A DNA stretch of 64,000 bases from Sumerlaeia bacterium (GCA_040219255.1 JAVJSW010000060.1:268582-332581); one strand, 5' to 3'; shown: positions 11,253 to 39,981, counted from the stretch's first letter. Notes: generated by a model from the sequence alone, not told the origin. Translations and numbers: made by a program.

Positions 11253-12019
11253 CTCTTTCCGAAAACGTCCATGACCTTTTGCATGTCCTCCCAGACGACG
11301 CGCTTCTTGCGGGGGTCGCGCAGGAGGTAGGCGGGGTGGTAGGTGGGCATGACGGGGATGCCGCGCCATTCCATCCAGGTGCCGCGCGCGCGCGTCATGC
11401 TGAGCCGGGCGTGTTCGGGCATGAGGCCGACGAGGGCGGTCTTGCCGAGGGTGACGATGACCCGGGGCCGAACGATGGCGAGCTGCTCCTCAAGGTAGGG
11501 CAGGCACATGGCCATTTCGTCGGGTTCGGGCTGGCGGTTGCTGGGCGGGCGGCATTTGACGACGTTGCCGATGAAGACGTCTTCGCGCTGGAATTTCATG
11601 GCGGCGATGATTTTGTCGAGCAGTTCGCCGGCGCGGCCGACGAAGGGGCGGCCGGTGGCGTCTTCGTTGGCGCCGGGGCCTTCGCCCACAATGGCGAGTT
11701 CGGCGGCGGGGTTGCCTTCGCCGGGCACGGTCTGGGTGCGGCTGTGGCAGAGGCGGCACATGGTGCAGGCGGCGATGCGCTCGGCGGCGAGGCGGTCGAG
11801 CGCATCGCGGCGCTCGGCCAGGGGCATGCCCTCTCCGTGGACGAGAGCGGGACCGTGATCCGCGGACGGTGCGGCCTCGTGGTCGAAAAGATCCACGCCT
11901 GGCTCGTCCGCGGGCGATTCGGCGGCCTCGGCGGTTTCGATGCCTTCGAGAAACCCGAATCCGAGCGATCGGTACAAGGCCAGTTGGTGCTTGAGAGGGT
12001 CGGGCGTGGGGCGTTGCAT
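11249..12019 (-). CDS. Uracil-DNA glycosylase family 4
   Basis: CTMCRL, GEGPG...GRPFVGRAG, NVVKCRPP, TYHPAYLLR. Confidence 0.95.
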   Translation of the reverse strand: MQRPTPDPLKHQLALYRSLGFGFLEGIETAEAAESPADEPGVDLFDHEAAPSADHGPALVHGEGMPLAERRDALDRLAAERIAACTMCRLCHSRTQTVPGEGNPAAELAIVGEGPGANEDATGRPFVGRAGELLDKIIAAMKFQREDVFIGNVVKCRPPSNRQPEPDEMAMCLPYLEEQLAIVRPRVIVTLGKTALVGLMPEHARLSMTRARGTWMEWRGIPVMPTYHPAYLLRDPRKKRVVWEDMQKVMDVFGKR

Positions 12020-12238
12020 GGGCGGAGGAGACCTCGAGGGATCGGTCGGGGGGGGCGCTCGGGCGCGATGACGGGATGACGGTAGGGGGGAAGGCCGGGG
12101 GATGCAACGGCTACGCCAGTCTGGCGGAAGAGAATGTTGACATCCGCGCCGGTCGAACCCACCGTTGATTCAGGTCGTCCCTCCGCCTGTCCCTCTGGGG
12201 TGCGCGGGTGGCGGGCCGCGATGGAGGGATCGTTGGCA

Positions 12239-12267
12239 TTGACAGCCTGGTCCATCGACCGCAAAAT
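12239..12267 (+). promoter_or_regulatory. Putative sigma70 promoter of the pseudopilin cluster
   Basis: TTGACA-17nt-CAAAAT. Confidence 0.55.
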
Positions 12268-12279
12268 GAAACTTCATCG

Positions 12280-12849
12280 GTGAAGTACCGGCTATTTTCA
12301 GGAAGTGCCCAGCTCTTGCCCAGGTTCTCTCGACTCAACCATCGACGCGTTCGCGCCTTCTCCCTGGCGGAGATCATGGTGGTGGTGGCGATTCTGGCGG
12401 TTGGGTCGACGATCGCGCTTTACAGCTATTCCAGCTATCGGCGCACCCTGTCGGTCAATTCCACCGGGCGCAAGGCGCAGGCGATGATGGTCACGGCGAA
12501 AAACCTGGCGATCAACTCCGGGCGGCCCGTCCAGATGGTGGTCAATCTGGACAAGGAAACCTTCTGGATCGACGGTCTCGACCGGAACGGCAACCTGGAC
12601 AAGCCGAAGATTTATCCGGAAGAGCAGGCCGCGGAGTTCGTTCTGATCGAGCGGCTGAGGGTCGGACCCGACGTTTTCGATTCGGGCATTCACAGCATTC
12701 TGTTCGAGCCCGACGGCCGCAATCGCTTCGTGGTGGTGACGTTCCGCCGCGAATTCGACGATGCGACGGTGGCGGAGAACTACACTTCCATTCGCCTTTT
12801 CCCTTCGTCCCGCGAGCCCCAATTCCTGGAACGCACTCGCCTGGAGTAA
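12280..12849 (+). CDS. GspH/FimT-like minor pseudopilin
   Basis: RA|FSLAEIMVVVAIL prepilin motif; AKNLAINSGRPV and FEPDG resemble GspH/FimT; start codon uncertain. Confidence 0.75.
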   Translation: MKYRLFSGSAQLLPRFSRLNHRRVRAFSLAEIMVVVAILAVGSTIALYSYSSYRRTLSVNSTGRKAQAMMVTAKNLAINSGRPVQMVVNLDKETFWIDGLDRNGNLDKPKIYPEEQAAEFVLIERLRVGPDVFDSGIHSILFEPDGRNRFVVVTFRREFDDATVAENYTSIRLFPSSREPQFLERTRLE

Positions 12850-12856
12850 CCCCGCC

Positions 12857-13312
12857 ATGCGCCAGTCCGCCGTTCGCCGCGGCTTCACCCTTGTCGAGGT
12901 CCTGGTGGCCCTAGCGATCCTGCTGACGGGCATCGTGGCCATCGTTCAGCTCTTTCCCGTCAGCCTGCGAGCCAACACGGACGCGGCGCTGAAGGGCTCG
13001 GCGGTGATTCTCGCCTACCAGAAAGTCGAAGAAATGCGCCGCGACGAGTACCCGCTGCGCAGCGACAGCTTCACCGCCACGGTCCGGAATCTGGAAGGGG
13101 AAACGGACCCGGTGGCCTGGCCGGAAGATCCGCGGCTGACCTATTCCTACTCCGGGTTGAGCGCCGTCCTTGGCGACTTGCCGGAGGACCCCGGCGACCC
13201 GCGCACGGGGCGCGGCGTGGCCCGCGTGATCGTGCGCCTCAGCGAGAGCTTCGACCCGCAAACGCCGGTGATCTACGAACTGCGGTTCTACGGCGATCCG
13301 CTGGCCCCCTAG
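12857..13312 (+). CDS. GspI/PilV-like minor pseudopilin
   Basis: RRG|FTLVEVLVALAIL; AVILAYQKVEEMR. Confidence 0.8.
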   Translation: MRQSAVRRGFTLVEVLVALAILLTGIVAIVQLFPVSLRANTDAALKGSAVILAYQKVEEMRRDEYPLRSDSFTATVRNLEGETDPVAWPEDPRLTYSYSGLSAVLGDLPEDPGDPRTGRGVARVIVRLSESFDPQTPVIYELRFYGDPLAP

Positions 13313-13393
13313 CCGGCTTTGGCCTTCCTCTCTTTCTTTAGGACAAAATCGCAGGTGCCAATTTCTTCCGGTTGCCCCACACTTCCGGCAGTG

Positions 13394-13409
13394 TGGAATG
13401 TCCCTTGCA
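13394..13409 (+). promoter_or_regulatory. Putative sigma54 promoter upstream of the GspJ-like gene
   Basis: TGGAATG-TCCC-TTGCA, GG/GC spacing matches -24/-12. Confidence 0.45.
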
Positions 13410-13455
13410 CATTTCGCCACGGAACCTCGATTTCTCCGGTACGGACCCCGCGCCG

Positions 13456-14547
13456 ATGACGCAACGCTCCCCGAAAATCCGCCCCCGCACGCCGCTCGAG
13501 AGCCGGCGGCGGCGCTCTCGCGCCTTGAGCCTGACGGAGTTGATGGTGGCGATGACGGTGACCCTGGTCTTCACAGGGAGCGTCGTGACCGCTTTCCTGC
13601 AGATTTCCCGCGCCGCCGATGCCTCCGAGGCGCAAATCCGCGCCCATACGCGGGCCCGGGCGGCCCTCGATATCATCGCCCGCGACTTGCAGCGCGTCGC
13701 CTTCGACGTCAACCTCGACAACTCCATGCCCTCTCCCCAGCCCCAGGTCTTCAAAGTTCAGAGTCAAACCCTGGGCCACGGGGATTTGCGCGACAACGAT
13801 GGCGACGGACAGGTGGACGAGGAAGTGGTCAACGGTCTGGACGAAGACTGCGACTGGGTGGATACGCACGCCGAAGCGGATCCGGGAGGCGGATCGCCGC
13901 CCCTGATCGAGCGCGCCGCCTACACCGTCATCCCCGACTTGGGCGACGTCGCAGTGGACGAGGACAATCGTTTCTCGCGCGACATCCTCACGCTTCGCCT
14001 CCCCTCGGTGCGCACCAATGAGTTGGGCGAACCCTTGACGGAGCAAATCACTTACCGCCTCGACGACAGCGCGAGCTTTGGCAGCGAATGGGTGCTGCTC
14101 CGCCAGAACGTCATCATCAACGAAGTGACCATGGAGTCGGAAGTCGAAATCGAACCGGTCGTGTTCGACGTGGTGAGCCTGGACATTCTGCCGTGGAACG
14201 CGAACGACGATGTTACGAGCAACATCCTGACGGCGTGCGCGGCGCCTTCCCAGTACGGACCTTACTACGTGTCCGATTTCGATTCCGGCGATTATTTCAA
14301 CAACCCGGCGCGCCGACCGTTCTATGCGCCGGCCGGCATTCCTCCGTTTCCGTTTCCCGCGGCCGTTTACGTGCGCGTCACGGTGAACGCGGAGCCCATC
14401 CCGCTGGAGGAGTTTTCCGGCTGGCGCCCCGGCGATACCGCTTTGGATCGCACGCCGCTGAAGACGCTGAGCCTGGGGATGGTGGTGACGCTGGACGAGA
14501 CGGTGAGCCAAACGAATTACCGCGATTACGGAATGCCAAGGATGTGA
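13456..14547 (+). CDS. GspJ/PilW-like minor pseudopilin
   Basis: RA|LSLTELMVAM; ARAALDIIARDL; internal DNDGDGQVDEE Ca-binding-like motif. Confidence 0.75.
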   Translation: MTQRSPKIRPRTPLESRRRRSRALSLTELMVAMTVTLVFTGSVVTAFLQISRAADASEAQIRAHTRARAALDIIARDLQRVAFDVNLDNSMPSPQPQVFKVQSQTLGHGDLRDNDGDGQVDEEVVNGLDEDCDWVDTHAEADPGGGSPPLIERAAYTVIPDLGDVAVDEDNRFSRDILTLRLPSVRTNELGEPLTEQITYRLDDSASFGSEWVLLRQNVIINEVTMESEVEIEPVVFDVVSLDILPWNANDDVTSNILTACAAPSQYGPYYVSDFDSGDYFNNPARRPFYAPAGIPPFPFPAAVYVRVTVNAEPIPLEEFSGWRPGDTALDRTPLKTLSLGMVVTLDETVSQTNYRDYGMPRM

Positions 14548-14639
14548 CGCCTCGTCTTTCCTGACCTAAAGTTGACTTTTCGGTGGCCACGGTGCCCGAA
14601 CCCGCGAATTTTCCCCCCAGGACGGACTCCTGAATTGCT

Positions 14640-17195
14640 ATGGCGAACATGATGCGCCCCACCAGACAAGGCAGGATCGGCGGCCCCGCGAACCGGGGAT
14701 CGGCGATTCTTTTGGTGATCGCCATCCTTTCTATCCTGGTGCTTCTGGCCATCACGCTGTCGTTCACGAGCCGGCTGGAAGTGGCCTCGGCGGAGAACTT
14801 CGCCAATGGCGTCCAGAACCGCGTGGCCACGGAAACCGGCGTGGAGGAAGTGGCCTTCGCCCTGGCGTATCAACTTCCCAGCGGCCCGACGGGAAAGCTC
14901 GATCTGGCTCTGAGTTCCGAGCACCGCGGGCAACGCGAGCGCGCCATCGCGAGCGAATCGCTGGCATGGCGGGGCTTCCGCCTGACGCCCGCCACTCTCT
15001 CGCAACCGGCGGTCACCGCCGCCGCAACGCAGCAGACTTCAAACCGCAGCCTGCGAACCAACGCCTCCGGCGCCCTGATCCCCTATCACGAAACGGAAAA
15101 CTCCGAGGTGGTGGTGCTCGACGCCTCCGCCCGGGTTAACGTCAACGCCGCGCCTTACGAAGTGCTGGCCGGATTTTTCGACGCCCACGGGGCCGAATCG
15201 GGCCACGCGGTGGACGCCGACGCGCTGGCCCGGGCCATCGTGGCGGTGCGCCTGGGGCCCGACGGGGCGCCGGGCAAGAAGGACTTCGACGACGATTACG
15301 ACACGCGCGAGGGCCTGGCCGAATTGCTGCGCGAGGAAAACCCGGAACTGGCCGGCCGCCTGGACCTGCTTCTGCCAGAACTTCTGCAGTCCATCCGCGA
15401 ACCTTACGGGGACCTGCCGGAGGGCGAGGAGGAATGGCGCGCCGCGGCCCGCAAGGCCTTGATGACCAACACGGACGAGAGCGACGAGTACGTGGCGGAC
15501 CTTCGGCTGCCGCCCCTGGGCGACGACATCCGCTTCGGCAAGCTGTCGGACCTGCTGCGCTACGAGCTTATTCGCGACGCCGGCCTGACGCCGGAACTGC
15601 TGGAAAGCGCCCGGCCCTACCTGACGGTCTTCAGCGCGAGCGAGGACGATCTGCTGCGCGCTGACGCCATCGCCCGGGTGGACGCGAATCGCGCCACGGC
15701 GGAGGAAATCCGCGACGGCCTGCGGACGCTCTACGGCGACTCGGGCAAGAACGGCGTCCTCCTGACCCAATTCGCCGCCAATGTGGCCGACGCCCGGGAC
15801 TTCGACAGCGTGCCGACGATCTTCCACGGCTCGACGCGCGAGGACACCGTTCTCGGCTTCGAACGCACGCCCTATATCACGGAAGTTTATCCCGATTCCC
15901 TGACCGACGACGGGGAAGGCGACGACGGCCAGTTCGTGGAACTGTACAATCCCTGGACGGAACCTTTCGACCTGACTGGTTGGTCGCTGCGCGGCGCCGG
16001 GACGGCGTTCGCCATCACCGGTTCGATCGCGCCGAAGGGCTACCTGATCCTGACCGATGACCTGGACAGCACGTCCGACGACTCCGAGGACCTGATCGAG
16101 GGCACCGGCAGCCTGTACCACGTTTTCGGCGTGGTGGCCAACGGCCGCCAGCGGCGCGCTCTGGAAAGCGCCGGTTTCGCCCTGCCGCACACAACCTCCG
16201 GGCCGGTGACGGTGGAGCTGGTGAACGCGGACGGGGACCTGGTGGATCAGTTCACCTACCGCCCCGGCGCGCGTCCGACGGAAGGCATCTACTCGTTCCA
16301 ACGGACAAACCCGCTGGTGCGCTCGGTGGAACGCCTGCGCGCGACGCCTTTCGGTCTGCCGGCGGCGGAATTGCCCGATGATCCGGACACCTTCGACCGG
16401 TTGGCGCTGGCGCCGATGAATGGGCCCTTTGCCGATGTGACGGATGTCCTGATGGTTTTCGCCGGGTTCCACGACGCGGACTCGGGCGAGGAAAACCTGT
16501 GGGGCTATCCGGTGCTGGCCACGCCCAAGAGCCCGCGGCCGGACGACGCGCTGGCGGCGGCGGACCCGCTGGCGATCGATGCCCGCGTGGTGGATCTGCT
16601 GACCGTGGGCACGACCCCGCCGGCGATCAAGGCGAAGCGCACCTCGCGCAACGAGCAGGTGGCGTCGCTCTTCGCGGCGGACACGCGCCAGGACATCGCG
16701 GCGAGTTACAGCCGCGGCGATGTGGACGATCTGGCGGTGCAGCGCCTGACGGGTGTGGCTCTGGGCCGGGCGGTGACGGCAAACGTGCGGCACGGTCTGA
16801 TCAATGTGAACACGGCGCCGGAGACGGTGCTGGCCGCGGTGCCGGGCTTCGGCGCGCGGACGGCGGCGGTTCTGGCGGAGCGGCGCGGCCGCGAGGAATC
16901 GCAGGCCCGGGCCGGCGGCCTGGGCGATGGCCTGCTGTACCATCGGCTGAGCGATCTCCTGGTGGACGACGCGCTCTACGGCGGGGGCCAAGGGGTCTCG
17001 CGCGAGGAGCGGCTGGCCCGCTTCCGGTCGATCGCGCCCTACGTAGCCTTCAATTCGCGATCCTTTGTGCTTGTCGGACAGCCCAAGCTGGCGACAGAGT
17101 CGGGGCAGGACTTGCAGGAAGCTTTGCGGACGGAGTGGCTGGTTGCGACGGACCGGGGAACGCCCGAGACGATCGCCCGCCGGCCGGCCCGCTGA
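14640..17195 (+). CDS. Large GspK-like pseudopilin with lamin-tail-like domain and HhH motif
   Basis: RG|SAILLVIAIL without Glu5 (K-type); DASARVNVNAA, GLINVNTAPETVLAAVPGFG; ITEVYPD...QFVELYNP...DLTGWSL lamin-tail-like segment. Confidence 0.8.
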   Translation: MANMMRPTRQGRIGGPANRGSAILLVIAILSILVLLAITLSFTSRLEVASAENFANGVQNRVATETGVEEVAFALAYQLPSGPTGKLDLALSSEHRGQRERAIASESLAWRGFRLTPATLSQPAVTAAATQQTSNRSLRTNASGALIPYHETENSEVVVLDASARVNVNAAPYEVLAGFFDAHGAESGHAVDADALARAIVAVRLGPDGAPGKKDFDDDYDTREGLAELLREENPELAGRLDLLLPELLQSIREPYGDLPEGEEEWRAAARKALMTNTDESDEYVADLRLPPLGDDIRFGKLSDLLRYELIRDAGLTPELLESARPYLTVFSASEDDLLRADAIARVDANRATAEEIRDGLRTLYGDSGKNGVLLTQFAANVADARDFDSVPTIFHGSTREDTVLGFERTPYITEVYPDSLTDDGEGDDGQFVELYNPWTEPFDLTGWSLRGAGTAFAITGSIAPKGYLILTDDLDSTSDDSEDLIEGTGSLYHVFGVVANGRQRRALESAGFALPHTTSGPVTVELVNADGDLVDQFTYRPGARPTEGIYSFQRTNPLVRSVERLRATPFGLPAAELPDDPDTFDRLALAPMNGPFADVTDVLMVFAGFHDADSGEENLWGYPVLATPKSPRPDDALAAADPLAIDARVVDLLTVGTTPPAIKAKRTSRNEQVASLFAADTRQDIAASYSRGDVDDLAVQRLTGVALGRAVTANVRHGLINVNTAPETVLAAVPGFGARTAAVLAERRGREESQARAGGLGDGLLYHRLSDLLVDDALYGGGQGVSREERLARFRSIAPYVAFNSRSFVLVGQPKLATESGQDLQEALRTEWLVATDRGTPETIARRPAR

Positions 17196-17323
17196 ACCGG
17201 GTTGCGAGAATGGCGGCGGCGCGCACGGAGTTGACACCGGGCCGCCTCCGCCCCACCTTTTGTAAGACTGGAGGGTTTGAGCCCCCAAGCCCAAACCCGA
17301 ATCCGAAGAGGAGCACGACCTCC

Positions 17324-18244
17324 ATGGCAATCCCAGGAATGACGAGACGAACACGGCAGCGCGCTTTCACCCTGGTGGAACTCGTGATCGTGGGCGCCCT
17401 CATCGCCCTGTTCTCCGGGCTGGCCATCTTCGGCGTTCAGCAGCAGTTCCGCTCGAACACGCGCAAGGCCATGATCGGCGAAACCCGCCAATTGGCCCAG
17501 GCGCTCGATTTCGCCTTTCAGGATGTGGGCTTCTTTCCAGTACCTTGCTTCCTGGACGACAGCCGGACAACCTTCGAACTCAGCAGCCAGCAGGTCTTCG
17601 CTGGCGATCCCAACCGCCTGTACTTGAACATGGGTGTGTATGACATCCTGCCGCTCAACCAGATCGCCAACGTTCGCGAGAACTGGCGGGGGGCGTATTT
17701 CTCCGCGTCGCAATCCCGCAGCGCGGTGGCTCAGGGCCGGGGCGGTTCGAAGAAGATGGTTCTGCCGCTGGTGTCTCCCGATTTCGCCTTCGATTGGCCG
17801 GCGGACACCTACAACAATCCGTACATGATCTACATGCTGGACATCGATCCGGCGAGTACCGCCACGAACCCGACACTGCGGTTCACGGAGAACAGCACGC
17901 AGAACACGGGCAATTACGTCAATGCCGTCGTGAGCTACGGTCTGAACCAGGTGCCCGGTGGCGGCGATCTGTTCCAGGCGACAGGCAATTTCGACGACAT
18001 CGCCGATGGTGGCCCCTATGGCCTGCGGCTCTACACCGGCAATCCGAACAACACGGAACTGCCGCTGACTTATCTTTCGCCGGCGACGCTGACGCAATCG
18101 GCGGCGGATGCCCGGGCGAACGCCTGGACAACGGAATTCGCCCAGAACGCGGGGATCATCAATCGCCTCGCTCTGAACAACGATCTCAATGACCAAGTCG
18201 CCATCACCGATTCCGGTTCGGACGATGTGGTTTTCAGCTTCTAA
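17324..18244 (+). CDS. Enlarged GspG-type pseudopilin paralog 1
   Basis: RA|FTLVELVIV; WRGAY, ADTYNNPY, SYGLN, SDDVVFSF; GAGGAG RBS. Confidence 0.8.
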   Translation: MAIPGMTRRTRQRAFTLVELVIVGALIALFSGLAIFGVQQQFRSNTRKAMIGETRQLAQALDFAFQDVGFFPVPCFLDDSRTTFELSSQQVFAGDPNRLYLNMGVYDILPLNQIANVRENWRGAYFSASQSRSAVAQGRGGSKKMVLPLVSPDFAFDWPADTYNNPYMIYMLDIDPASTATNPTLRFTENSTQNTGNYVNAVVSYGLNQVPGGGDLFQATGNFDDIADGGPYGLRLYTGNPNNTELPLTYLSPATLTQSAADARANAWTTEFAQNAGIINRLALNNDLNDQVAITDSGSDDVVFSF

Positions 18245-18309
18245 CGTTTTTTCTCCGCTTGATGACGAGTTTTTCGAATAAGGGACCCCGATCCGTGATA
18301 CGCGTACCG

Positions 18310-19044
18310 ATGACAACGACCCGATCCCGCCGCCGCGCGTTCACCGCCGTGGAAATCGCCATGGTGGCGTCCGTGATCGCGATTATCGCGCTCCTCATTC
18401 TGCCGCTTTACCGCTCGCGTACGACGGAAGCGCGCCTTGTGGGGGCGCAGGATGAAATGGCCTCCCTGGCCAAGGCGATGCTGCTGGTGGAGGCGGACAT
18501 CGCCCGCGCGGTGCCGCTGCAGGCGCTCGACAACCGTTCGAGCCAGACGACCGGCGAGCCGCTGGCGGACATCCCCTACAGCGAACGCGCCCCGGAGTAT
18601 ACCTGGAACGGTCTGGAACTCGAAGAGAGCGCCATCGACCGTCAGTGGAAGGGCCCCTACATCTCCTACAACAAGTCCACGACGATGGGGGAAATCCGGT
18701 CGCTCCAGCCCTGGCTGGTCGTGGAAAACGGCGGGCCCCTGTATTACGAGGACCCGATCAGCCCGCCGGCCGGTTCGACCAACAACGCGGCGGACGCGCT
18801 GGCGGACCGCTTCCCGCTCGATCCCTTCGGCAACCCCTACATTTTCTTCAGCACCGGAATCTATCCGCACCCAAGCGCCTTCGCCAGCTCGATCTACAAC
18901 TCGCCGTACAATCAGGTCTGGTCCCTGGGGCCCGATGGCTTGCCGGGCGACGCGCCGACCTTTGGCAGCGCCGGCGACTATTACCCGACGCCGATCGGCC
19001 GCCTGAGCGAGACGGTGGGCGACGACATCCGCTACCGGTTCTAA
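18310..19044 (+). CDS. Enlarged GspG-type pseudopilin paralog 2
   Basis: RA|FTAVEIAMV; WKGPY, DPFGNPY, WSLGPDG, GDDI. Confidence 0.85.
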   Translation: MTTTRSRRRAFTAVEIAMVASVIAIIALLILPLYRSRTTEARLVGAQDEMASLAKAMLLVEADIARAVPLQALDNRSSQTTGEPLADIPYSERAPEYTWNGLELEESAIDRQWKGPYISYNKSTTMGEIRSLQPWLVVENGGPLYYEDPISPPAGSTNNAADALADRFPLDPFGNPYIFFSTGIYPHPSAFASSIYNSPYNQVWSLGPDGLPGDAPTFGSAGDYYPTPIGRLSETVGDDIRYRF

Positions 19045-19140
19045 GGCGGCAACGTTGCGCCCGCACCCGACGGATTCACCCTGAACACGCACGACGCCGA
19101 GGAAAGGCTTCTTCCCCCACTCATTCACGGGACGACCACG

Positions 19141-19923
19141 ATGAAACGAACCGCTTCTCATAAAGGCTTCTCGATCCTCGAGCTGCTGATCGCTCTGATT
19201 ATCATCGGCATCCTGGCCGTGATCCTCATCCCGTTGGTTTCGAACCGGACGGAGGAGGCGCGCCGCACCGCCGCCCTCGCCGATCTGGAACGGCTGGCCA
19301 ACGCGCAGGACCGGCTGGCGGTGGATATCGGGTACTACGGACGCCTGTTTTTTCTCAACGATGTTGGCAACCGCGCGAACGCCCAGCAGTTCCAGCGCGA
19401 TTTCGATCCGGCCGATGGCACGGTGGATAGCATCAGTTCTTACTTCGGTCCGGGGTCGAACTACTTCGGCAACATCAACCAGATCTTCATCGATCCAAAC
19501 ACGGGCAACCTGGTCGCCGCGGTGGTGGGATCGACGCTTCTCGGCAACATCAACGTGAACGAAACGGCGCTCAATTTCTACGGGCCGTACGTGAACTGGA
19601 ACCGGGACGAGAACAGCTACTCGCAGTCTCCGTTCGACGGCGGCGAAGGCACCGCGTACCTGCCGGACGGCATTCCGGACGATCCGTGGGGCAACAACTA
19701 CGTGATCTTCACGCGGGCTGGGATGCTGCTGGAACCGGCGGGCATTTTCACCACCAGCGCCAGTTTCCCGCTCGGCCTGGGCGGCGTGACGGTCAGCAAT
19801 CTGGACGAGGCCTTCGACCGGGCGACGCTGGTGAGCTTCGGCCCCGACGGACTGCCGGGAGACGGAGCGGGGACGCCGATCCCCGGAGAAGGCGACGACA
19901 TTGTCCGGAACTTCGGGCAGTAA
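19141..19923 (+). CDS. Enlarged GspG-type pseudopilin paralog 3
   Basis: KG|FSILELLIA; FYGPY, DPWGNNY, SFGPDG, GDDI. Confidence 0.85.
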   Translation: MKRTASHKGFSILELLIALIIIGILAVILIPLVSNRTEEARRTAALADLERLANAQDRLAVDIGYYGRLFFLNDVGNRANAQQFQRDFDPADGTVDSISSYFGPGSNYFGNINQIFIDPNTGNLVAAVVGSTLLGNINVNETALNFYGPYVNWNRDENSYSQSPFDGGEGTAYLPDGIPDDPWGNNYVIFTRAGMLLEPAGIFTTSASFPLGLGGVTVSNLDEAFDRATLVSFGPDGLPGDGAGTPIPGEGDDIVRNFGQ

Positions 19924-19960
19924 GATTTTCCGCACACTTGAAAAACCCGGTGATGCCATG

Positions 19961-19990
19961 TTGACGCGCCGGGCTTAGGATCACCACACT
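19961..19990 (+). promoter_or_regulatory. Putative sigma70 promoter upstream of GspG paralog 4
   Basis: TTGACG-18nt-CACACT in intergenic DNA. Confidence 0.4.
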
Positions 19991-20050
19991 TCATAGGACA
20001 ACGATCAGTTCCGACGGTTTCCCCAGTTTTTCGGAGGTTGGCACCATACA

Positions 20051-20848
20051 ATGAACCGTTTCTTCAAATCCCAGCGCAAAGGACTTTTCCTGCGCGCCAC
20101 TACCCTAACGGAGCTTTTGGTCGTTTTGGCGATCATTTCGCTCCTGGCGACACTGGCCGTGCCGGTGTACGTACAAAAGAGCGAGCAGGCCCGCCGGGCC
20201 GTCGCCCGCGCCGAAGTGCGCGAAATCGCCAATGCGGAAGAAGCCGTGATCATCACGCACGGTTTCGTGGTTCCGATGCACGTCCTCGACAACGTGCCGA
20301 ACCTTGACAACGGCGGCACAGACGTTCGCGACGATTTCGAGAACGACTCGAACGACGGCACGAAATTCGTCATCGATCCCTTCATCCCGCTCGACGACCA
20401 GTTCGGCAGCCAGCAGACGCTCTCCTCGAGCGACGACAAGGTGGAGCGGATGATCGCTTTCTGGCAGGGTCCGTTCCTGAATCCGGGCCGCGTTTTCCAG
20501 GGCACCAGCGGCGACAACAACACCGTCAACGCGAACCAGGAAGACATCTCGACGGATATCCTGCTGGATCCGTGGGGCCGTCCCTATCGCCTTTACAGCG
20601 ACCTGGGTCTGACCGGCGACGAGCCGGCTCCGTCGGCCATCAGCCAGATCGCGCTGACGACCAACAGCCGCGCCCGCAACTTCGACAATGGCCGTCTGAC
20701 GAACGACGACGACCGTTTCGACCGCTTTGCGGTGCTCTCCTACGGCTCGAATGGCATCGCGGACGATGGCGTGGGCGGCGACCTGGACGACGACATCTTC
20801 TACACCTTTGGCACGGTGGTGAACGAAACGTCGTTCAACCTGTTCTAA
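20051..20848 (+). CDS. Enlarged GspG-type pseudopilin paralog 4
   Basis: RA|TTLTELLVV; WQGPF, DPWGRPY, SYGSNG, DDDI. Confidence 0.85.
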   Translation: MNRFFKSQRKGLFLRATTLTELLVVLAIISLLATLAVPVYVQKSEQARRAVARAEVREIANAEEAVIITHGFVVPMHVLDNVPNLDNGGTDVRDDFENDSNDGTKFVIDPFIPLDDQFGSQQTLSSSDDKVERMIAFWQGPFLNPGRVFQGTSGDNNTVNANQEDISTDILLDPWGRPYRLYSDLGLTGDEPAPSAISQIALTTNSRARNFDNGRLTNDDDRFDRFAVLSYGSNGIADDGVGGDLDDDIFYTFGTVVNETSFNLF

Positions 20849-20899
20849 CCGGTCTCTCCTCGTCACTCTCCGCACCCTCTACCCCTGGACGGTCCTTTC

Positions 20900-21580
20900 A
20901 TGAAGCCCATTTCAGCCAAAGGCGTTTCGCTGCTTGAACTGCTGGTGGTCGTGCTGGTCGTGTCGATCCTGTCGACGATCGCCGTGGGCGTGTACAGCCG
21001 CGAACTGATCAAGAGCAAAGCGGCTCGCGCGCGTGCGGAGATCAGTGCGCTGGAAGTCGCGATCACGCGCTACCAACTCGACACGGGGCAATATCCCCCG
21101 TCGGGAACGAGCGGCGGCACGTTCAATTTCCTGCCGGCGACCGATGTGCCCTATCAGGGTTCGGGGTCTCTGTACGGCGCTCTCATGCGGGGCGTCCTGG
21201 AAAACGCGGTCGATTCGGATGCAGAGGTGACGCCGCTGTGGCAAGGCCCCTACATCGACTTCCGCGATAACACGGGGGTGTACGATTTCCCTTCGAACAC
21301 CGTCATCGATCCTTCCGTGGCGCCGTCCGGCGCGGTCTACCAGACGCAGTTCCTCGATCCCTTCAAGAGACCGTACTACTACATCCGCTCGACCGATTAC
21401 GATACGCTCGGAGGCACGCTGCTTCCCGCCAGCGATCCGCTCTTCACCATCGATCAGTTCTACAACCCGAGCACGTTCCAGCTCGTGTCCTTCGGCCCCG
21501 ACGGCCAGTCGACGGTCAACTCCGGCCTGATCGGGACCGATCCAGACGACTTGTCGAACTGGACCTCCTCTCAATTCTAG
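20900..21580 (+). CDS. Enlarged GspG-type pseudopilin paralog 5
   Basis: KG|VSLLELLVV; YQLDTGQYP, WQGPY, DPFKRPY, SFGPDG, DDLSNW. Confidence 0.88.
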   Translation: MKPISAKGVSLLELLVVVLVVSILSTIAVGVYSRELIKSKAARARAEISALEVAITRYQLDTGQYPPSGTSGGTFNFLPATDVPYQGSGSLYGALMRGVLENAVDSDAEVTPLWQGPYIDFRDNTGVYDFPSNTVIDPSVAPSGAVYQTQFLDPFKRPYYYIRSTDYDTLGGTLLPASDPLFTIDQFYNPSTFQLVSFGPDGQSTVNSGLIGTDPDDLSNWTSSQF

Positions 21581-21623
21581 GTTTTCCCTCCCGCCAACCT
21601 TCACTCCCGGATTCGGGAGATTA

Positions 21624-21654
21624 GCCTCCGCCCTCGAAAGGTGGAGGCCTTTTT
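21624..21654 (+). terminator. Rho-independent terminator closing the pseudopilin cluster
   Basis: gcctccgcc-loop-ggtggaggc followed by T-run. Confidence 0.7.
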
Positions 21655-21751
21655 CTTGTTTCGTACTTGCCCGGGGGCCGGAAAAGCGGTGTTAATCGCC
21701 GCGCCTCGCAGAGGCCCCTGCCCCTCCATTTTGCCGCGTTACGAGATTTCC

Positions 21752-22984
21752 ATGTTTGCTTCCTCACTCCGGACCGCCGTTCTGATTGCCGCTCTGCCCG
21801 TGGCGGTGGTGGCGCAAAGCGGCAACCGCGTTTCGAGTTCCGCTTCCACCACCGGCGAGCTGGTACAGACGGCGACTTCGACACCGACGCCGACTCCCAC
21901 GCCAACGGTGACTCCAACGGCGACCGCGGGGCCCACGCCAGCGACCGAGACGCCCGCGCCGACGGCGACGCCGCCGGGCCGGCGGATGCCACTGGAATCG
22001 CCGGTACGGCCCACGCCCGAGGCAACTCCGGAGCCCTCCCGGCCGGCCACCCCGGCGGCCGAGACGCCGGTACCTTCCTTGCCGGAAGGGGCGGAGGAGG
22101 CGCGCTACTACTGGAGCCTGAAGGGTGGCGGCGAAGTAATCGGGCGGCTGATCAAGGACACACCGGAGCAGATCTTCATCGACGTGGGGCCGGATATCCT
22201 GGCGATTCCGCGCGGAGCGGTGGAGCGGCGGCTGACCCTGGCGGATTTGCTGTCGGGCCCGGCGCAGGAGCGTTCGGCGTTGGCGGGGGTCACGGAGGGG
22301 CGCGAGGGGAGCGGTTCGCTCCTGAGCCAGCAGGAAATGGTGGAGGATGTGAAGAAGGGCGTGGTGCTGATCGCGAATCCGCGAGGCCGGGGGTCCGGGT
22401 TCGTGTTGGATGACGAAGGCCGCATCGTGACGAACTATCATGTGGTGCGGGGCGAGAAATACCACACCGTCACGATTTTTCAGTTGCGCAACGGCCAATG
22501 GGAACGCGAGCGATTCGAAAACGTGGAGCTGGAGGCTTACAGCACGCTGTACGACATCGCGCTGCTGCGGCTCGACATGGACGAGGTGGGGGAGCGGGGT
22601 GTGACACTGAACGTGGTTCCCGTGGCGCAACCGGGCGCGCTGCGCGTCGGCGACGCGGTTTACGCCGTGGGCAACCCGGGTATGGGCGCCATGATGCTGG
22701 AGAGCACGGTGACGGAAGGGATCGTCAGCTCGCTCGATCGCAATTTCAACGATGTGATTTACATCCAGACGACGGCGCCGGTGAACCCGGGCAACAGCGG
22801 CGGACCGCTGATCGACAGCGACGGGTCGGTAGTGGGGCTGGTGACTCTGAAGGCCATCTTCCAGGAAGGCATCGCGTTCGCTCTGCCGGTCGAACTGTTG
22901 CGCCATTTCCTGGCGAATTCGAATTCTTACGCGTACAGCCAGCAGGCCCAGAACGACGGATTCCGTTATCACCGGCCGGAATAG
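21752..22984 (+). CDS. Secreted trypsin-like serine protease (S1C, no PDZ) with Pro/Thr-rich N-terminus
   Basis: GSGF, TNYHVV, DIALL, NPGNSGGPL catalytic motifs. Confidence 0.9.
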   Translation: MFASSLRTAVLIAALPVAVVAQSGNRVSSSASTTGELVQTATSTPTPTPTPTVTPTATAGPTPATETPAPTATPPGRRMPLESPVRPTPEATPEPSRPATPAAETPVPSLPEGAEEARYYWSLKGGGEVIGRLIKDTPEQIFIDVGPDILAIPRGAVERRLTLADLLSGPAQERSALAGVTEGREGSGSLLSQQEMVEDVKKGVVLIANPRGRGSGFVLDDEGRIVTNYHVVRGEKYHTVTIFQLRNGQWERERFENVELEAYSTLYDIALLRLDMDEVGERGVTLNVVPVAQPGALRVGDAVYAVGNPGMGAMMLESTVTEGIVSSLDRNFNDVIYIQTTAPVNPGNSGGPLIDSDGSVVGLVTLKAIFQEGIAFALPVELLRHFLANSNSYAYSQQAQNDGFRYHRPE

Positions 22985-23020
22985 GCCGCACCTTCTCCCC
23001 GGACAATTCCCCCATTTAGG

Positions 23021-24868
23021 ATGAGTGCTATGAGTTATCTTCCCCGATTCCTGACGCGCCGGGCTTCGGCCTGGGCGATTTCCGGAGCGCTGTTGACCGC
23101 CCCCGCGGCCCTGACGGCGGACGAGCCGCTGCTGCGGATGCTGCCGGACGAGACCGTGGCGGCGGTGACGATCGCCGATGTGGAAACGTTGCGCGAGGAG
23201 TGGAAGCGCAGCATCTACGCCGAGGCGTGGGCCAGCCCGGAATTCAAGGGCATGCGCGAAGCGATCACGCAGGCGTGGGAGAAAGCGTCGGAGCGGGTCG
23301 AAAAGGACCTGGGGCTTTCGCTGGCGGATCTGTACGCGATGGCCGATGGCTCGGTCGGGATGGCGATTACGGAATTGGATTTCGAGACGGAAACGCCGCA
23401 CGCGGCGATTCTCGTGGGGCTGGACAAGGAGAAGCGCGAAAACGCGGAGCGCGTTGTGGATCGGGCATTGAAGGAATGGATGCCGGACACGGCCAAGAAA
23501 AGCGCCAACGAAGTCGGCGGCGTGCGGGTGTTTTCCTTCGAATTCGCCGATTCGTCCTCGGCCAGGGAAGTGCCCGATGGATTGCGGGGTTTGGAGTTGG
23601 AAACCGAAGCGGGAACTCGCCTGATCCAGTACGCGTTCACCGACAGCCATTTCATCCTGGGCGAGGGCGCCGGCAAACCGGTGGAGAAGGTGCTGCTGAC
23701 GATGTCGGGGCGGGACAAGGAAACGCTCGGGCAATCGAGCAAGTTCCGCCGCGAAGAGCAGCGCGTGAAAGACCTGGGTCTGATCCAGGGCTATATGGAC
23801 GCGGGCAAGTTTTTTGGCGACATGACCCGCATGAGCGAAGCCCCGGAAGAAGGCAAGAAGGCGTTCGAGGCGCTGGGCATTGCGAACCTGGGCGGGATCC
23901 TGATGATGTTCGACTTCGCCCCCAACGGCGCGACAACGCGCACCGGCCTTGGTGTGCCGGCGAACAGCGGGCTTTTGAGCACGATGCTCCGCGCGGGCGA
24001 ACCGAACCGGTTGCAGTTGCTGGAGAAGACGCCATCGAATGCCATCGCTATGGGAAGCTGGACGCTGGACGTGGGGGTGCTGTGGAATTCCATCCGCGAA
24101 TTGGTGAAGCAGACCCAGCCCCAGGCCGACGGGATGCTGAACGCGCAGTTGATGAACCTGCGCAATCAGTTCGGCGTCGATCTCGAGCGCGATATCCTGG
24201 ATCACATCAAGGGCGAGCACGCCTATTATCAGGTGCCTTTGCCTTCGGACCTGGCGCAGCGCCTGACGGAGGAGCAGCAGCAGTTCATGCCCGATTATTC
24301 CCAGGTGGTGATCCTCGGCCTGGAGAACGGTTCGGAAACGGCGAAGAGCATCAACACGCTGATGCAGAAGCTGACCGGCGATCCGTTCCAGTTGCCGCTG
24401 GAAAACCTGGATCAGCAGGGCTTCGCGCTGTGGGCGATGAAGCAGGACCCGGGTCAAGGGATGCCGATTCGGCCATGCCTGGGCGTGACGCCGGGGGGGC
24501 TGGTGTTGTCGTCGACACTGGAGGACGGGCAGGCGGCGATGCGGCGCCTGACGGGCGCGAGCAGCGATTCGCTGGCGAAGGACGAGAAGTTCCGGGCCGT
24601 GCGCGAGGTGCTGGGCACGAGCGACGGCGACCTGCGGGTGTTCAGCTATACGAGCCAGAAGGCCTACGAAGGGGCCTCGGACCAGATGCGCTGGATCGTC
24701 GAGGCGTTCAGCGGCGACCTGATTGCGCAGGGCATTTCGCTCTCGCCGGACGACATCCCACCGGCGTCCTGGTGGCGGCGGTACTTCCTCGGTTCGGGCC
24801 AGACGATCGTGCAGAACGAGAGCGGATTCCTGGCGGAGTACCGGATGCTGGCGCCGGAGGGGCAGTAG
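23021..24868 (+). CDS. Secreted protein, DUF3352-like
   Basis: Signal peptide; LPDET and LEKTPSNA two-lobed duplicated architecture; family assignment from memory. Confidence 0.55.
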   Translation: MSAMSYLPRFLTRRASAWAISGALLTAPAALTADEPLLRMLPDETVAAVTIADVETLREEWKRSIYAEAWASPEFKGMREAITQAWEKASERVEKDLGLSLADLYAMADGSVGMAITELDFETETPHAAILVGLDKEKRENAERVVDRALKEWMPDTAKKSANEVGGVRVFSFEFADSSSAREVPDGLRGLELETEAGTRLIQYAFTDSHFILGEGAGKPVEKVLLTMSGRDKETLGQSSKFRREEQRVKDLGLIQGYMDAGKFFGDMTRMSEAPEEGKKAFEALGIANLGGILMMFDFAPNGATTRTGLGVPANSGLLSTMLRAGEPNRLQLLEKTPSNAIAMGSWTLDVGVLWNSIRELVKQTQPQADGMLNAQLMNLRNQFGVDLERDILDHIKGEHAYYQVPLPSDLAQRLTEEQQQFMPDYSQVVILGLENGSETAKSINTLMQKLTGDPFQLPLENLDQQGFALWAMKQDPGQGMPIRPCLGVTPGGLVLSSTLEDGQAAMRRLTGASSDSLAKDEKFRAVREVLGTSDGDLRVFSYTSQKAYEGASDQMRWIVEAFSGDLIAQGISLSPDDIPPASWWRRYFLGSGQTIVQNESGFLAEYRMLAPEGQ

Positions 24869-33318: not shown

Positions 33319-33852
33319 GGCGGCGGCGAGTTCGCTGCGGAGCAATTGCTCGCGGATGGCGAGTTCGCTCCGCTTGATCCGCCACAGCACAAGCGGCACC
33401 ACGCCCAGCCCCACAGCCATCAGCCCAGCGAACGCCAGCAGTGGGATCATGGCCGCCGGGTCGGGCGCCGCGAGGGCCTTCATCAGCACCAGCCCCGTAA
33501 AAACCCATGCGAAAGCTGTCAGGTGGGCGACCTGCCACAGACCGTAAACCCGGCGGTGGTAGCGGCGGCTCCGGGCCAGCGACAGCATGTAAATTCCCAT
33601 GTTGAGGGGCGCCAGCGTGCACAGCAGCAGCCCCAGCCGCATCCAGATCGGGCCGCTTTCCTGCAGGAATAAAAGTCCCATCGGCAGCGTCAGGATAAGG
33701 GCCACGACCCCGCTGACCTGGGTCAGCCGCTGGCGCAGGGGGCTGAGTTTCGGCGAGAGCAGCTCCTGCATCGCCGCGTCGAAGTGCGCTTTGCGGCGCG
33801 GGTCTGGGGTGGTCTGTTCGATCAATTGGTCGCGAAGGGTGGTGGAAGTCAT
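33298..33852 (-). CDS. Putative membrane anti-sigma factor
   Basis: Four hydrophobic segments; start overlaps the ECF sigma stop codon. Confidence 0.65.
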   Translation of the reverse strand: MTSTTLRDQLIEQTTPDPRRKAHFDAAMQELLSPKLSPLRQRLTQVSGVVALILTLPMGLLFLQESGPIWMRLGLLLCTLAPLNMGIYMLSLARSRRYHRRVYGLWQVAHLTAFAWVFTGLVLMKALAAPDPAAMIPLLAFAGLMAVGLGVVPLVLWRIKRSELAIREQLLRSELAAASSPPEQ

Positions 33853-34403
33853 TTGGCGCGTTCCTCCTGAAGGATGTGGCGAAGTTTGCGTTTGGCGGTG
33901 TGAATGCGGCTCTTGACGGTGCCCTCGGGAATGGCGAGGAGCCCGGCGATGTCCGCGATGGAGAGGTCGTCGAGAAAGTGCAACACGATGGGCTCGCGGT
34001 GGAGCAGGTCCAGCCGGCCGATGGCCCAGTGCAGCTCCTGGGCTTCGGCGGGCGAGAAGTCCGGTTCCTCCGCCGCGGGCCCGGCGCGGTCTGATTCCTC
34101 GGGCAGGGTGTCGTGGATGATCTGGCCGCGTTGCTGGGCAAAGGCGGCGTTGCGGGCAATGCGGTAAATCCAGGCAGGAAAAGCCCCCGGCTGGCGCAAC
34201 TTCGGCAACCCCCGCAACGCCCGCAGCCACGTCTCCTGCAACGCGTCCCAAGCGTCGTCCTCAGTCGGCGCGATGCGGCGCAGATAGTAGAGCAGCGGCC
34301 GCTCCCACTGAGCCACCAGCGGCGCGAATGCGGACTCGTCCCCGCGTTGGAGCCGCACGATCAGGAGTTCGAGCTGTAATCGTTCTGTCTTACTGAGAGC
34401 CAT
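33849..34403 (-). CDS. ECF RNA polymerase sigma factor
   Basis: DALQETWL, FPAWIYRIARN, GTVKSRIH. Confidence 0.93.
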   Translation of the reverse strand: MALSKTERLQLELLIVRLQRGDESAFAPLVAQWERPLLYYLRRIAPTEDDAWDALQETWLRALRGLPKLRQPGAFPAWIYRIARNAAFAQQRGQIIHDTLPEESDRAGPAAEEPDFSPAEAQELHWAIGRLDLLHREPIVLHFLDDLSIADIAGLLAIPEGTVKSRIHTAKRKLRHILQEERAK

Positions 34404-34439
34404 AATGCTGGGCCCTTCCAAAAAGGCGTTCACCCAGAC

Positions 34440-34467
34440 AGATGCGGCAAAGGGGGGTGGCGGTTCA
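34440..34467 (-). promoter_or_regulatory. Putative ECF-type autoregulatory promoter
   Basis: Minus strand TGAACC-16nt-GCATCT upstream of the ECF sigma gene. Confidence 0.55.
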
Positions 34468-34558
34468 GATTGGGGGGGAAGTTTTTCTCGTGTGCCTACG
34501 CTTGCTGGAAACCAGGAAATACAAATCGTTCGGTCGATGACATGCCTGTCTCAACGTT

Positions 34559-35170
34559 TCATCGCATCAGTCCAAACAGGATCAAGACAACAAGACCTAA
34601 AATAAGAAGACATCCGATGAGTCCGGGGATATCCGCGGCGCCAAAATCCGGCGTCAACCCGCGCGACTTTCGATATGCACGGTGGCATGATTTACAGAAC
34701 ACAAATTTCTCTATGCGGCCTCCTGTGCAGGGATACCTCTGCTCGACTACTTCGGTCTTGACCTCGCGGCAGACAATGTGACGATGGCATTTATCGCAAT
34801 TGCCCGAGGCGCACACAAATTTCCTGATTTTGGGATCATAGCAACGAGCGATTCCATGGCACGAATCGCACGATATGGAATTCGGATGACCACAGTTGGG
34901 ACAAGGCCTTCCCGACAGGACATCCCCAATTCTCAACTGCTGATTGCAGGCTTTGCAGGATATCGTTCCAGTCAATACCTCATTCTTCAATTTTTTTTCT
35001 TCGTCATGCTCCTTTTCGAGTCGCTCCTTTTCAGCCAACCTTGCTTGTCTCGCTTCGTGCTCAGCCTGTTTCAGCTTTGCATCCAGAGGGCGAGGATGCT
35101 TGCAGTGCGGGCAAAAGGCCGCTTTCGGGCTGACCAAGCCTTGGCAATAAACACATTCTTTCAGCATCAT
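34559..35170 (-). CDS. Cys-rich multi zinc-ribbon protein with C-terminal TM helix (AT-richer islet)
   Basis: Seven CxxC motifs, charged coiled segment, hydrophobic C-terminus. Confidence 0.65.
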   Translation of the reverse strand: MMLKECVYCQGLVSPKAAFCPHCKHPRPLDAKLKQAEHEARQARLAEKERLEKEHDEEKKLKNEVLTGTISCKACNQQLRIGDVLSGRPCPNCGHPNSISCDSCHGIARCYDPKIRKFVCASGNCDKCHRHIVCREVKTEVVEQRYPCTGGRIEKFVFCKSCHRAYRKSRGLTPDFGAADIPGLIGCLLILGLVVLILFGLMR

Positions 35171-35997
35171 TCACGTACACCCAAAACGAAGAAAAATTCT
35201 CTGTCCAGAGAAGTGTGGCCAAACTCCGGCATCACCGGCAAATTGAAGTTTTTTATCAATCTGGGAACAATCTGAATTATAAGCCAATCGATCATTCCGT
35301 AAAGAGGGGAATAAGATCTTTCCGGCCAGCAGTAGTGACGAAGAATGACACTCACATACTTCCTGGAAAGAAGATCGTTGACATGCGCGAAGAAATCGAG
35401 GAGAAAATTATATAGGAGAGGGTCATGAAAATTCGCTGATTCGCGGGAAAGCTTTTCTATCCAGTCCATTGATGGCAATTCATCCACGTTAAGCGCCTTG
35501 CGAACATAATGAAAGTAGAGATCCTCGAGGGAGTGCTCAAAGCAAAGAATCGAGCCATCCCTGATATATACGAGCTGGTCGAAGAAGTCTCCTGTGATTA
35601 CAGAGCCTTTGACCTGAAAGAGATCGAGGTATTGTTTCAGCGGAGACGCCATTTGCGCCGATGCCTCGATACCATTGTAGTGATAGGCGTTTGCTGGCCT
35701 AACCGCTTTGAGGGCGATAATGATTGCGCTCGAGCTTCCTGGGCCAATCTCAACAACCCGCCTATAATGGCCAGTCTGTGCCAGCCTCTCAAAGCACCGT
35801 GCGTACCTGAGAATAAGCTGCAAATTCCAATGAGCAGACTCTGGGATGTCTCTTGACCGCTCCAAGAGCCTGCGGGCCCGCCACTCGGTACACAGTCTTT
35901 CAGGCCAGGAATCCCAACGCCTCGTCTGATGCATGATCAACAGTGGCCATTTCCCACAAAAACTGAGTGCTTCCTGGGTGTCCCAATGCTGGAGCAA
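35167..35997 (-). CDS. Putative class I SAM-dependent methyltransferase-fold protein (AT-richer islet)
   Basis: VVEIGPGSS, YNGIE, ITGDFFD; start uncertain. Confidence 0.55.
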   Translation of the reverse strand: MLQHWDTQEALSFCGKWPLLIMHQTRRWDSWPERLCTEWRARRLLERSRDIPESAHWNLQLILRYARCFERLAQTGHYRRVVEIGPGSSSAIIIALKAVRPANAYHYNGIEASAQMASPLKQYLDLFQVKGSVITGDFFDQLVYIRDGSILCFEHSLEDLYFHYVRKALNVDELPSMDWIEKLSRESANFHDPLLYNFLLDFFAHVNDLLSRKYVSVILRHYCWPERSYSPLYGMIDWLIIQIVPRLIKNFNLPVMPEFGHTSLDREFFFVLGVRE

Positions 35998-36140
35998 TAC
36001 AAGAACAGTGTGATGTGGCGCGTCTTAATCGTGTATGAGGAAAGTTCATCCCCACCCACCCATCCGATGCAATCGGAACTTAAAAACTCGCTTGGACGGA
36101 GAGCAGCGGTCCCAAAAACCTGATTCTCTTCGCAGTCACC

Positions 36141-36620: not shown

Positions 36621-36693
36621 GGCTTGCTCTTGCGCCCAAGGGGCCCGGGGCGGCAATGGCGGAGTGACTTTTCCCGGCGGGCGGCGCGAAACC

Positions 36694-39782: not shown

Positions 39783-39981
39783 GGTGTGGCTCCTTGCGGA
39801 TTGAACTGATCGCGCACACGGACCGGCCAGTGCGTGCGATCGGTCTTGGGCAAGGAGTGAGCCCCGGGGCCGAGGGCTGTGGTTTCTCGAGTTGCGTCTT
39901 GGCTGGGCAAAAAGGAACCGCGAAACGGCCATGCGGCAATTGCAGGATCGCGTCTCGCGGCTCTGGAAGGGGCGAGAGTGG

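Follow-up and report, generated by a model that had tools for sequence, protein, structure and literature searches.

A nine-gene pilin locus with five GspG-fold subunits conserved in Candidatus Sumerlaeota

Described pilin operons and the Sumerlaeota locus

Type IV filaments (TFF) are usually described as fibres of one major subunit with a few low-abundance pilins at the tip. In the Pseudomonas-type type IVa pilus (T4aP), the minor-pilin operon is ordered fimU-pilV-pilW-pilX-pilY1-pilE, and the pilus filament of Streptococcus sanguinis is a heteropolymer. Here, we describe a pilin locus in a 64,000-nt stretch of a Sumerlaeia bacterium genome (GCA_040219255.1, JAVJSW010000060.1:268582-332581; "the window", with positions counted from its first nucleotide), in which nine plus-strand open reading frames (ORFs) at 12280-21580 encode four minor pilins resembling the H, I, J and K subunits of type II secretion systems (T2SS), followed by five pilins with the fold of GspG (g1 to g9; Table 1). 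We hold with moderate confidence that the nine genes together encode the filament subunits of a type IV filament system conserved across Candidatus Sumerlaeota; the filament is probably retractile. A first-pass annotation of the window had proposed a type IV filament pilin locus at this position, with H-, I-, J- and K-like genes and five G-like genes on a single strand. The nine ORFs confirm this arrangement, and the class III signals of eight products, together with the family and fold assignments of the subunits, support the filament assignment. It named a one-to-one match to a described operon as an outcome that would refute its reading. For the five-G block, no description of five GspG-type genes after K was found in open-access papers and bioRxiv; the first four genes map one-to-one onto H-I-J-K and FimU-PilV-PilW-PilX.

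The equivalences between these two subunit sets are listed in Table 1 of PMC13533445. As in the Pseudomonas-type operon, the initiation pilins of the Sumerlaeota locus follow the order H-I-J-K, the K-type subunit lacks Glu+5, and the locus lies apart from the motor genes. Unlike that operon, it contains no PilY1/PilC adhesin gene, its own K carrying a lamin-tail immunoglobulin-like (Ig) domain, and five GspG-type pilins after K replace the single PilE, with no PilA-type major pilin. A type IVa pilus is recognized by a PilA-type major pilin together with PilMNOPQ; here the subunits are GspG-type, and PilM, PilN, PilO, PilP and PilQ were unmatched in the window and the scanned flanks.

Two further pilus systems offer partial parallels. 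The Thermus thermophilus cluster TTHA1216-1222 comprises PilA1-3, ComZ, PilA4 and a PilA4-like gene (PMC5131608, PMC6561018). It is likewise pilin-only, with seven genes in which GspI- and GspJ-like pilins come first, followed by an oversized tip pilin and, last, pilins of the major type. It belongs to a retractile T4aP, and the tip pilin ComZ has a large inserted beta domain. That insert is a beta-solenoid rather than a lamin-tail domain, and two PilA4-type pilins follow it, compared with five of GspG type here; the likeness between ComZ and g4 is one of published description. Several major-type pilins encoded side by side within one pilus system have a precedent in the type IV pilus of S. 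sanguinis, for which PMC11121087 and PMC6497953 report more than one major pilin. That organism, however, is monoderm and its two or three pilins are near-identical recent paralogs, whereas the five of Sumerlaeota are deeply diverged.

All nine subunits belong to the same protein families as the T2SS sets GspG-H-I-J-K and XcpT-U-V-W-X (PDB 9a1f, 6utu, 5vtm). The combination of GspG with GspH-I-J-K that marks a T2SS is present, but with five G-type genes positioned after K, giving H-I-J-K-G x 5 in place of G-H-I-J-K with one G. The Sumerlaeota G subunits are 1.5-2 times longer than their T2SS counterparts and K is 2.5 times longer. A T2SS has no retraction ATPase, whereas a PilT-family gene lies inside the full Sumerlaeota operon (L018; related loci carry the prefix L), and the GspC/L/M/D families were unmatched nearby (187 ORFs from 21 related loci, plus the window). 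The Verru_Chthon cassette A-D, a four-gene pilin-signal cassette from another little-studied phylum, gave weak N-terminal matches to g1, g2, g3 and g5 (TIGR02596/02598/02599); these reached 14.4-20.5 bits against cut-offs of 51.4-256.5 within the N-terminal helix only, and the candidate was rejected. So were the Hps pseudopilins HpsB/HpsC (NF038303/NF038304), with 16.7 bits against 200 for g3 and 12.6 bits against 150 for g7.

Subunit families, prepilin signals and probable operon structure

Eight of the nine products show the features that define the TFF superfamily, namely a class III signal motif ([G/A]-x-[S/T]-L-x-E) with Glu+5 followed by a hydrophobic N-terminal helix, and the same eight match Pfam N_methyl or TIGR02532. 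The ninth, g4, has the hydrophobic N-terminal segment without Glu+5; K-type caps lack Glu+5 and are apical, according to PMC13533445. Position -1 of the prepilin cleavage site is Ala instead of the canonical Gly in five of the eight window pilins and in many orthologs (g8, 18 Ala vs 11 Gly, n = 29; g5, 11 Ala vs 21 Gly). Ala occupies this position in the window's canonical GspG as well, which, judged from sequence, may bear on the specificity of the phylum's prepilin peptidase.

Table 1. Coordinates of the nine pilin genes and of the flanking signal-like sites in the window.
Feature	Coordinates	Strand	Description
g1	12280..12849 (alternative start TTG 12316)	+	GspH/FimU-like minor pilin; motif RAFSLAEI
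g2	12857..13312	+	GspI/PilV-like minor pilin; motif RGFTLVEV
g3	13456..14547	+	GspJ/PilW-like minor pilin with acidic DxDxDG-type insert; motif RALSLTEL
g4	14640..17195	+	GspK/PilX-like apical pilin, 851 aa; lamin-tail (Ig-like) insert and HhH/T2SSK segment
g5	17324..18244	+	Expanded GspG-fold pilin, ~300 aa, long C-terminal extension; motif RAFTLVEL
g6	18310..19044 (alternative start 18262)	+	Expanded GspG-fold pilin; motif RAFTAVEI
g7	19141..19923	+	Expanded GspG-fold pilin; motif KGFSILEL
g8	20051..20848	+	Expanded GspG-fold pilin; motif RATTLTEL; TIGR01710 E 3e-8
g9	20900..21580	+	GspG-fold pilin nearest canonical GspG; motif KGVSLLEL
Promoter-like site	12239..12267	+	TTGACA-17 nt-CAAAAT, just 5' of g1; consensus match only
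Terminator-like hairpin	21624..21648	+	9 pairs, 7 G-C, loop of 7, T-tail CTTTTTCTTG

The K and J family assignments are supported by structure comparison. For g4, an AF2 model built from 18 homologs (pLDDT 75) retrieved lamin Ig-folds (E 2e-4, prob 1.0) as well as the XcpX/GspK chains 9a1f_T, 6utu_C and 5vtm_X (prob 0.94-0.99) in Foldseek. In profile searches, the lamin tail domain (PF00932) covers residues 412-540 (E 2e-11, 44.5 bits, above the cut-off of 34.3), T2SSK (PF03934) covers residues 721-752, and GspK matches lie at both ends of the protein (NF037980, E 8e-10). No description of a lamin tail domain in a K-type pilin was found in open-access papers and bioRxiv. In Pfam, g3 matched by its N-terminal motif only, and its PilW/GspJ identity comes solely from the Atlas (feature score 0.95; TM by target 0.73 for the T2SSJ cluster and 0.69-0.70 for PilW clusters). 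The remaining minor pilins gave family matches below the cut-offs: g1 matched GspH (PF12019, E 0.0023) and TIGR01708 (E 1e-4) in addition to N_methyl (E 6e-6), and g2 matched PilV (TIGR02523, E 2e-9, 38 bits against 52.2) and GspI (TIGR01707, E 2e-5). Orthologs of g1 occupy the same position in related loci, and g2 is 31-60% identical to its locus orthologs (BLASTP). Profile searches with the g3 and g1 ortholog alignments against PDB sequences matched the N-terminal helix and nothing else. The acidic stretch of g3 (consensus YGDGIDNDGDG..DEE..DG.D.DGDW, with several invariant Asp) is strongly conserved in 30 orthologs and resembles calcium-binding DxDxDG loops, with no Pfam family match.

The five subunits encoded after K measure 220-300 aa and align with the window's canonical 147-aa GspG, with large inserts between shared motifs. 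The GspG core motifs W.GPY, DPWGNPY, S.GPDG and DDI are common to g5-g9 and this GspG (alignment A2), and in the same alignment g5 is 23-28% identical to the other four G-like paralogs. The match of g9 to T2SSG (E 1.4e-6, 28.7 bits) exceeds the cut-off of 21, and TIGR01710 recognizes it at E 2e-11. For g7, TIGR01710 gave E 2e-15 (56.8 bits against a cut-off of 88.85), and for g6 both T2SSG (E 1e-3) and TIGR01710 (E 2e-8) remained below their cut-offs. The Atlas model of g5 aligns to GspG clusters with TM by target of 0.77 and 0.74. The 196 homologs of g8 carry generic names throughout; its AF2 model has a pLDDT of 87, and its ortholog profile, compared with PDB sequences, recovered the N-terminal helix and one weak GspG stretch (2kep, E 0.0011).

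We placed these subunits in a FastTree phylogeny of 152 mature sequences of g5-g9 and GspG, from which ORFs without the motif or of at most 120 aa had been dropped; supports are local SH-like values, not bootstraps. Each paralog forms one Sumerlaeota clade (g5, 31 rows, support 99; g6, 26 rows, support 98; g7, 25 rows, support 97; g8, 26 rows, support 99; g9, 24 rows, support 98), and the g9 clade joins canonical GspG with support 99. Copies from three loci outside Sumerlaeota (L046-L048) are basal to the g5, g6 and g9 clades and lie beside the g7 and g8 clades. That each of g5-g9 has a well-supported clade to itself indicates paralogs of long standing, each with a role of its own. An origin of the five G genes by recent duplication, by cassette switching or by inversion is ruled out by these deep, separate clades and by the locus itself, which has no long DNA repeats or invertible segments and only short, motif-level repeats.

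The gaps between the chosen gene coordinates of the locus range from 7 to 143 bases. A single promoter-like site, the short gaps and one terminator suggest that the nine genes form one operon; a consensus scan found no strong terminator or promoter match inside it. The signal-like sites are weak evidence when taken alone: promoter-like matches in 11900-22000 numbered one, with 1.5 expected in shuffles, and five terminator-like sites were found where 8.3 were expected. The closing terminator proposed in the first-pass annotation is present as a hairpin with T-tail, on a consensus match only. Dozens of other genomes repeat the set with each of its genes, which puts it far beyond chance.

Related loci and their motor genes

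A scan of species-representative genomes yielded 51 related loci, nearly all from Candidatus Sumerlaeota/Sumerlaeia/BRC1. For g4, a set of 5.8 billion proteins contained only 19 homologs, of which the named ones come from Sumerlaeota except for one Planctomycetes protein with 22% identity. Conservation was counted by BLASTP of the window proteins against all ORFs of the related loci, within L001-L045. Gene order and number might have varied among relatives, an outcome named beforehand as speaking against a distinct system; instead, among the 33 loci whose sequence extends 4.5 kb or more beyond K, 22 have all nine genes in order. In these 33, g5-g9 are either complete and ordered (22) or absent altogether (11), with no partial set; where the flank is shorter, the genes expected first are present as far as the contig reaches. 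Of the 39 loci whose sequence covers 2.3 kb or more ahead of K, 30 have H-I-J directly 5' of it. Among the other nine, L015 has H, I and J, listed out of order through one over-long ORF call; L023, L033 and L040 have I-J, with an N_methyl-bearing ORF just 5' of I in L033; and L037, L038, L039, L041 and L044 have none of H-I-J upstream. Where H-I-J-K or K stands by itself, the flanks hold unrelated housekeeping genes (Pfam scans).

Individual loci depart from this pattern. In L040, a 6-Mb chromosome with motor genes and H-I-J-K, K is followed by a 1335-aa ankyrin-repeat protein and no five G-like genes (12925-16932, minus strand); its close relative L043 retains the five. Outside the phylum, an extra gene of ~280 aa with no Pfam or NCBIfam match stands between K and the five G-like genes (L046:4085-5800; L047:11290-12132; L048). 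Just downstream in L047 and L048, on the opposite strand, are a PMT_2 gene and two GT87 glycosyltransferase genes, which might serve pilin glycosylation. The window has a GT87 gene at 36592-38052.

The first-pass annotation had noted that an ATPase, platform protein, secretin and prepilin peptidase are absent from the locus, and none was matched there. Searches for T2SSE, T2SSF, secretin, Peptidase_A24 and PilMNO gave no match in the locus or the scanned window ORFs (36 + 13), with the exception of one ATPase. As a property of the system, however, the lack of assembly machinery does not hold, because orthologous loci, in Sumerlaeota and in two cases outside the phylum, have a PilB/GspE-PilT-PilB/GspE-PilC/GspF set upstream. 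Motor genes lie directly 5' of H on the same strand in seven of the 25 assessable loci of L001-L045 (L017, L018, L021, L028, L033, L034 and L040) and likewise in L047 and L048. As far as the flanks permit, their order is a PilB/GspE with MshEN, a PilT-family ATPase, a second PilB/GspE with MshEN, and a PilC/GspF platform gene. The PilT-family gene of L018 scores 435 bits with TIGR01420, above the cut-off of 319, and the platform protein is 73-94% identical among the 120 clusters listed.

These motor-linked orthologous loci indicate that the absence of machinery here is a lineage-specific operon split. A FastTree phylogeny of K with midpoint root places the window in a 22-row clade (support 98) containing no motor-linked loci, with the upstream flank too short to judge linkage for some rows, and the motor-linked loci nearer the base and in the outgroup; this placement is consistent with an operon that was complete in the ancestor and came apart in the lineage of the window. 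In HGW-BRC1-1, PilC is on a 562,605-bp contig and the K locus (L037) on one of 120,932 bp. Such splits are ordinary (Denise et al.), and T4aP systems are typically multi-locus (PMC6668835). In a study of 16 Sumerlaeota metagenome-assembled genomes (MAGs; PMC8092238), pilD is present in 15, pilQ in 14, gspD in 15 and pilM in 16; copies range from 1-8 for pilB, 1-7 for pilC and 1-12 for pilT; gspC, pilN and pilP are recorded in none; and genes for type IV pilus-dependent twitching are present in all MAGs of the study.

Two isolated TFF genes elsewhere in the window had been reported in the first-pass annotation, and both are real, each as part of a longer minus-strand ORF. The conventional gspG at 39339-39782 belongs to ORF 39339-39932 (PF08334, E 8e-30; TIGR01710, 126 bits against 88.85). 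It lies downstream of a 467-aa protein with no family match (39982-41385); further 5' on the same strand are RmlD-like and MoxR-type AAA genes, with no other TFF gene adjacent. The short ATPase at 59740-60960 belongs to ORF 59740-61224 (PF00437, E 8e-76, no MshEN domain), a member of the GspE/PilB family that is ~40% identical to the operon-linked ATPases of L018 and has no platform gene adjacent. It is probably one of many TFF ATPase paralogs in the phylum.

The proposed filament and competing explanations

In the filament system that we favour, the nine genes would be transcribed as one operon, and the eight products with a class III signal and Glu+5 would be prepilins, cleaved by a prepilin peptidase encoded elsewhere. 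The K-like g4, without Glu+5, would cap the filament and, together with g2 (I), g3 (J) and g1 (H), make up an initiation or tip complex, a role suggested by homology to GspHIJK and PilVWX-FimU; its lamin-tail Ig insert may be displayed at the tip as a binding module. Beneath the tip, g5-g9 would polymerise, with several of them co-built into one filament rather than held as spares, given their age, their individual conservation and their gain or loss solely as one block. The most GspG-like of them, g9, would be the likeliest bulk subunit. Assembly and retraction would depend on two MshEN-bearing PilB/GspE-type ATPases, a PilT-family ATPase and a PilC/GspF platform, whose genes lie directly upstream in other lineages and here presumably elsewhere in the genome, outside the 64-kb window. 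Because the full operon includes PilT, a retractile pilus of T4aP-like type is more likely than the piston of a classical T2SS. A more specific proposal, that the five GspG-fold paralogs co-polymerise in fixed order or stoichiometry and that the tip, with its lamin-tail Ig domain and HhH segment, acts as a receptor for DNA or a polymer, is doubtful at present.

Five distinct major-type subunits have stayed together in this phylum, as a complete set or not at all, from before its diversification onward; as far as sequence can tell, it has likewise retained a cap protein whose Ig-like binding domain takes the place of a separate PilY1-type adhesin. Should the five indeed be built into one fibre, they would allow a natural test of how the order of subunits is set and how filament surfaces diversify. 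An ordered co-polymer would be an architecture not seen in the studied T2SS, T4aP, Com and Tad systems, shared by an entire uncultivated phylum and by one or more neighbouring lineages. For annotation, labels such as "T2SS protein G/H" in Sumerlaeota conceal a defined nine-gene module, and a pilin locus without nearby motor genes need not be an orphan.

Several observations weigh against a filament module of this kind. The H and I assignments depend on sub-threshold matches and gene position, and the full-length g8 model had no Foldseek match in the PDB at E <= 0.001, probably because the long N-terminal helix dominated the comparison. Apart from the lone ATPase, motor, peptidase and secretin genes were not seen in the window, so that the partner machinery of this genome is one we infer. 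In the related operons, the ATPases and platform score about equally as PilB/GspE and PilC/GspF, all just below both the T4aP and the T2SS cut-offs (PilB, 617 bits against 675.65; PilC, 424 against 700; tied with GspE and GspF). The secretin, PilMNOP, GspCLM and prepilin peptidase families were unmatched in the 187 ORFs of 21 related loci, which makes passage of the filament through the outer membrane uncertain. The five-G block is not adjacent to H-I-J-K in 11 of the 33 assessable loci, and K stands alone in four; the two blocks can thus be separated, and those genomes may have kept or lost the G block. The expression of the nine genes and the behaviour of their products are predicted from sequence. 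Lastly, subunits of GspG type are more in keeping with a T2SS than with a T4aP.

This last point leads to the strongest competing explanation, in which the locus encodes a T2SS pseudopilus, a short periplasmic endopilus pushing folded enzymes such as glycoside hydrolases through GspD, with the five G subunits tuning or widening the piston. Every subunit affinity is indeed to Gsp proteins (T2SSG, GspH, GspI, T2SSK and the XcpX structures), the classic order GspG-GspH-I-J-K with one G, and a 770-aa K, is found in the distant relatives L049-L051, and gspD is annotated in 15 of the 16 MAGs (PMC8092238). We nevertheless regard it as unlikely, given that the full operon includes a PilT-family retraction ATPase scoring above its cut-off, that neither a GspC/L/M family nor a secretin was matched in any scanned flank, that gspC is recorded in none of those 16 MAGs, and that a cap bearing a lamin-tail Ig domain speaks for a tip that is exposed and binds.

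Alternatively, the five G subunits could be alternative major pilins, each used with its own PilB/PilC set or under its own condition, so that several homopolymeric filaments share one H-I-J-K tip. The high copy numbers in Sumerlaeota MAGs (up to 8 pilB, 7 pilC and 12 pilT; PMC8092238), the two PilB/GspE paralogs of the full operon and the detachability of the G block from H-I-J-K are all in keeping with this idea. It is made distinctly improbable, however, by the placement of all five in one operon with no strong internal terminator or promoter match, by their all-or-none presence with 0 partial sets in 33 loci, by the absence of switching repeats from the locus, and by the mismatch in number between five subunits and two ATPases. 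That g5-g9 are surface or periplasmic proteins anchored by a pilin signal (like the archaeal bindosome or the PVC-type pilin-like proteins) and use the prepilin peptidase only is extremely improbable: their size, far above that of GspG through big inserts, and the globular part of g8 without a significant PDB fold match would suit such proteins, but Glu+5 and the complete GspG core motif set are retained, the g5 model aligns to GspG, and the genes are operonic with an initiation complex and, in relatives, a motor.

Compared with these alternatives, a conserved filament-subunit module remains our preferred reading, and the rest of the window adds context. The terminator is followed by a trypsin-like serine protease and a DUF3352 protein (21641-24868, plus strand). 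This pair lies 3' of the operon in L002-L006 only and is thus a synteny marker of the window's close clade, not part of the system. An Rfam scan of the whole window gave no match, with no rRNA or tRNA. At 58029-59789, where G+C is 71%, two long overlapping ORFs of 533 and 580 aa on opposite strands have no Pfam match. The genes of the window look chromosomal, with G+C at 62-71% save for one dip to 53% at 34-36 kb. This dip (34001-36000), with an ECF-type sigma factor (33849-34433), a double zinc ribbon protein and an ORF without family match, may be a foreign insert.

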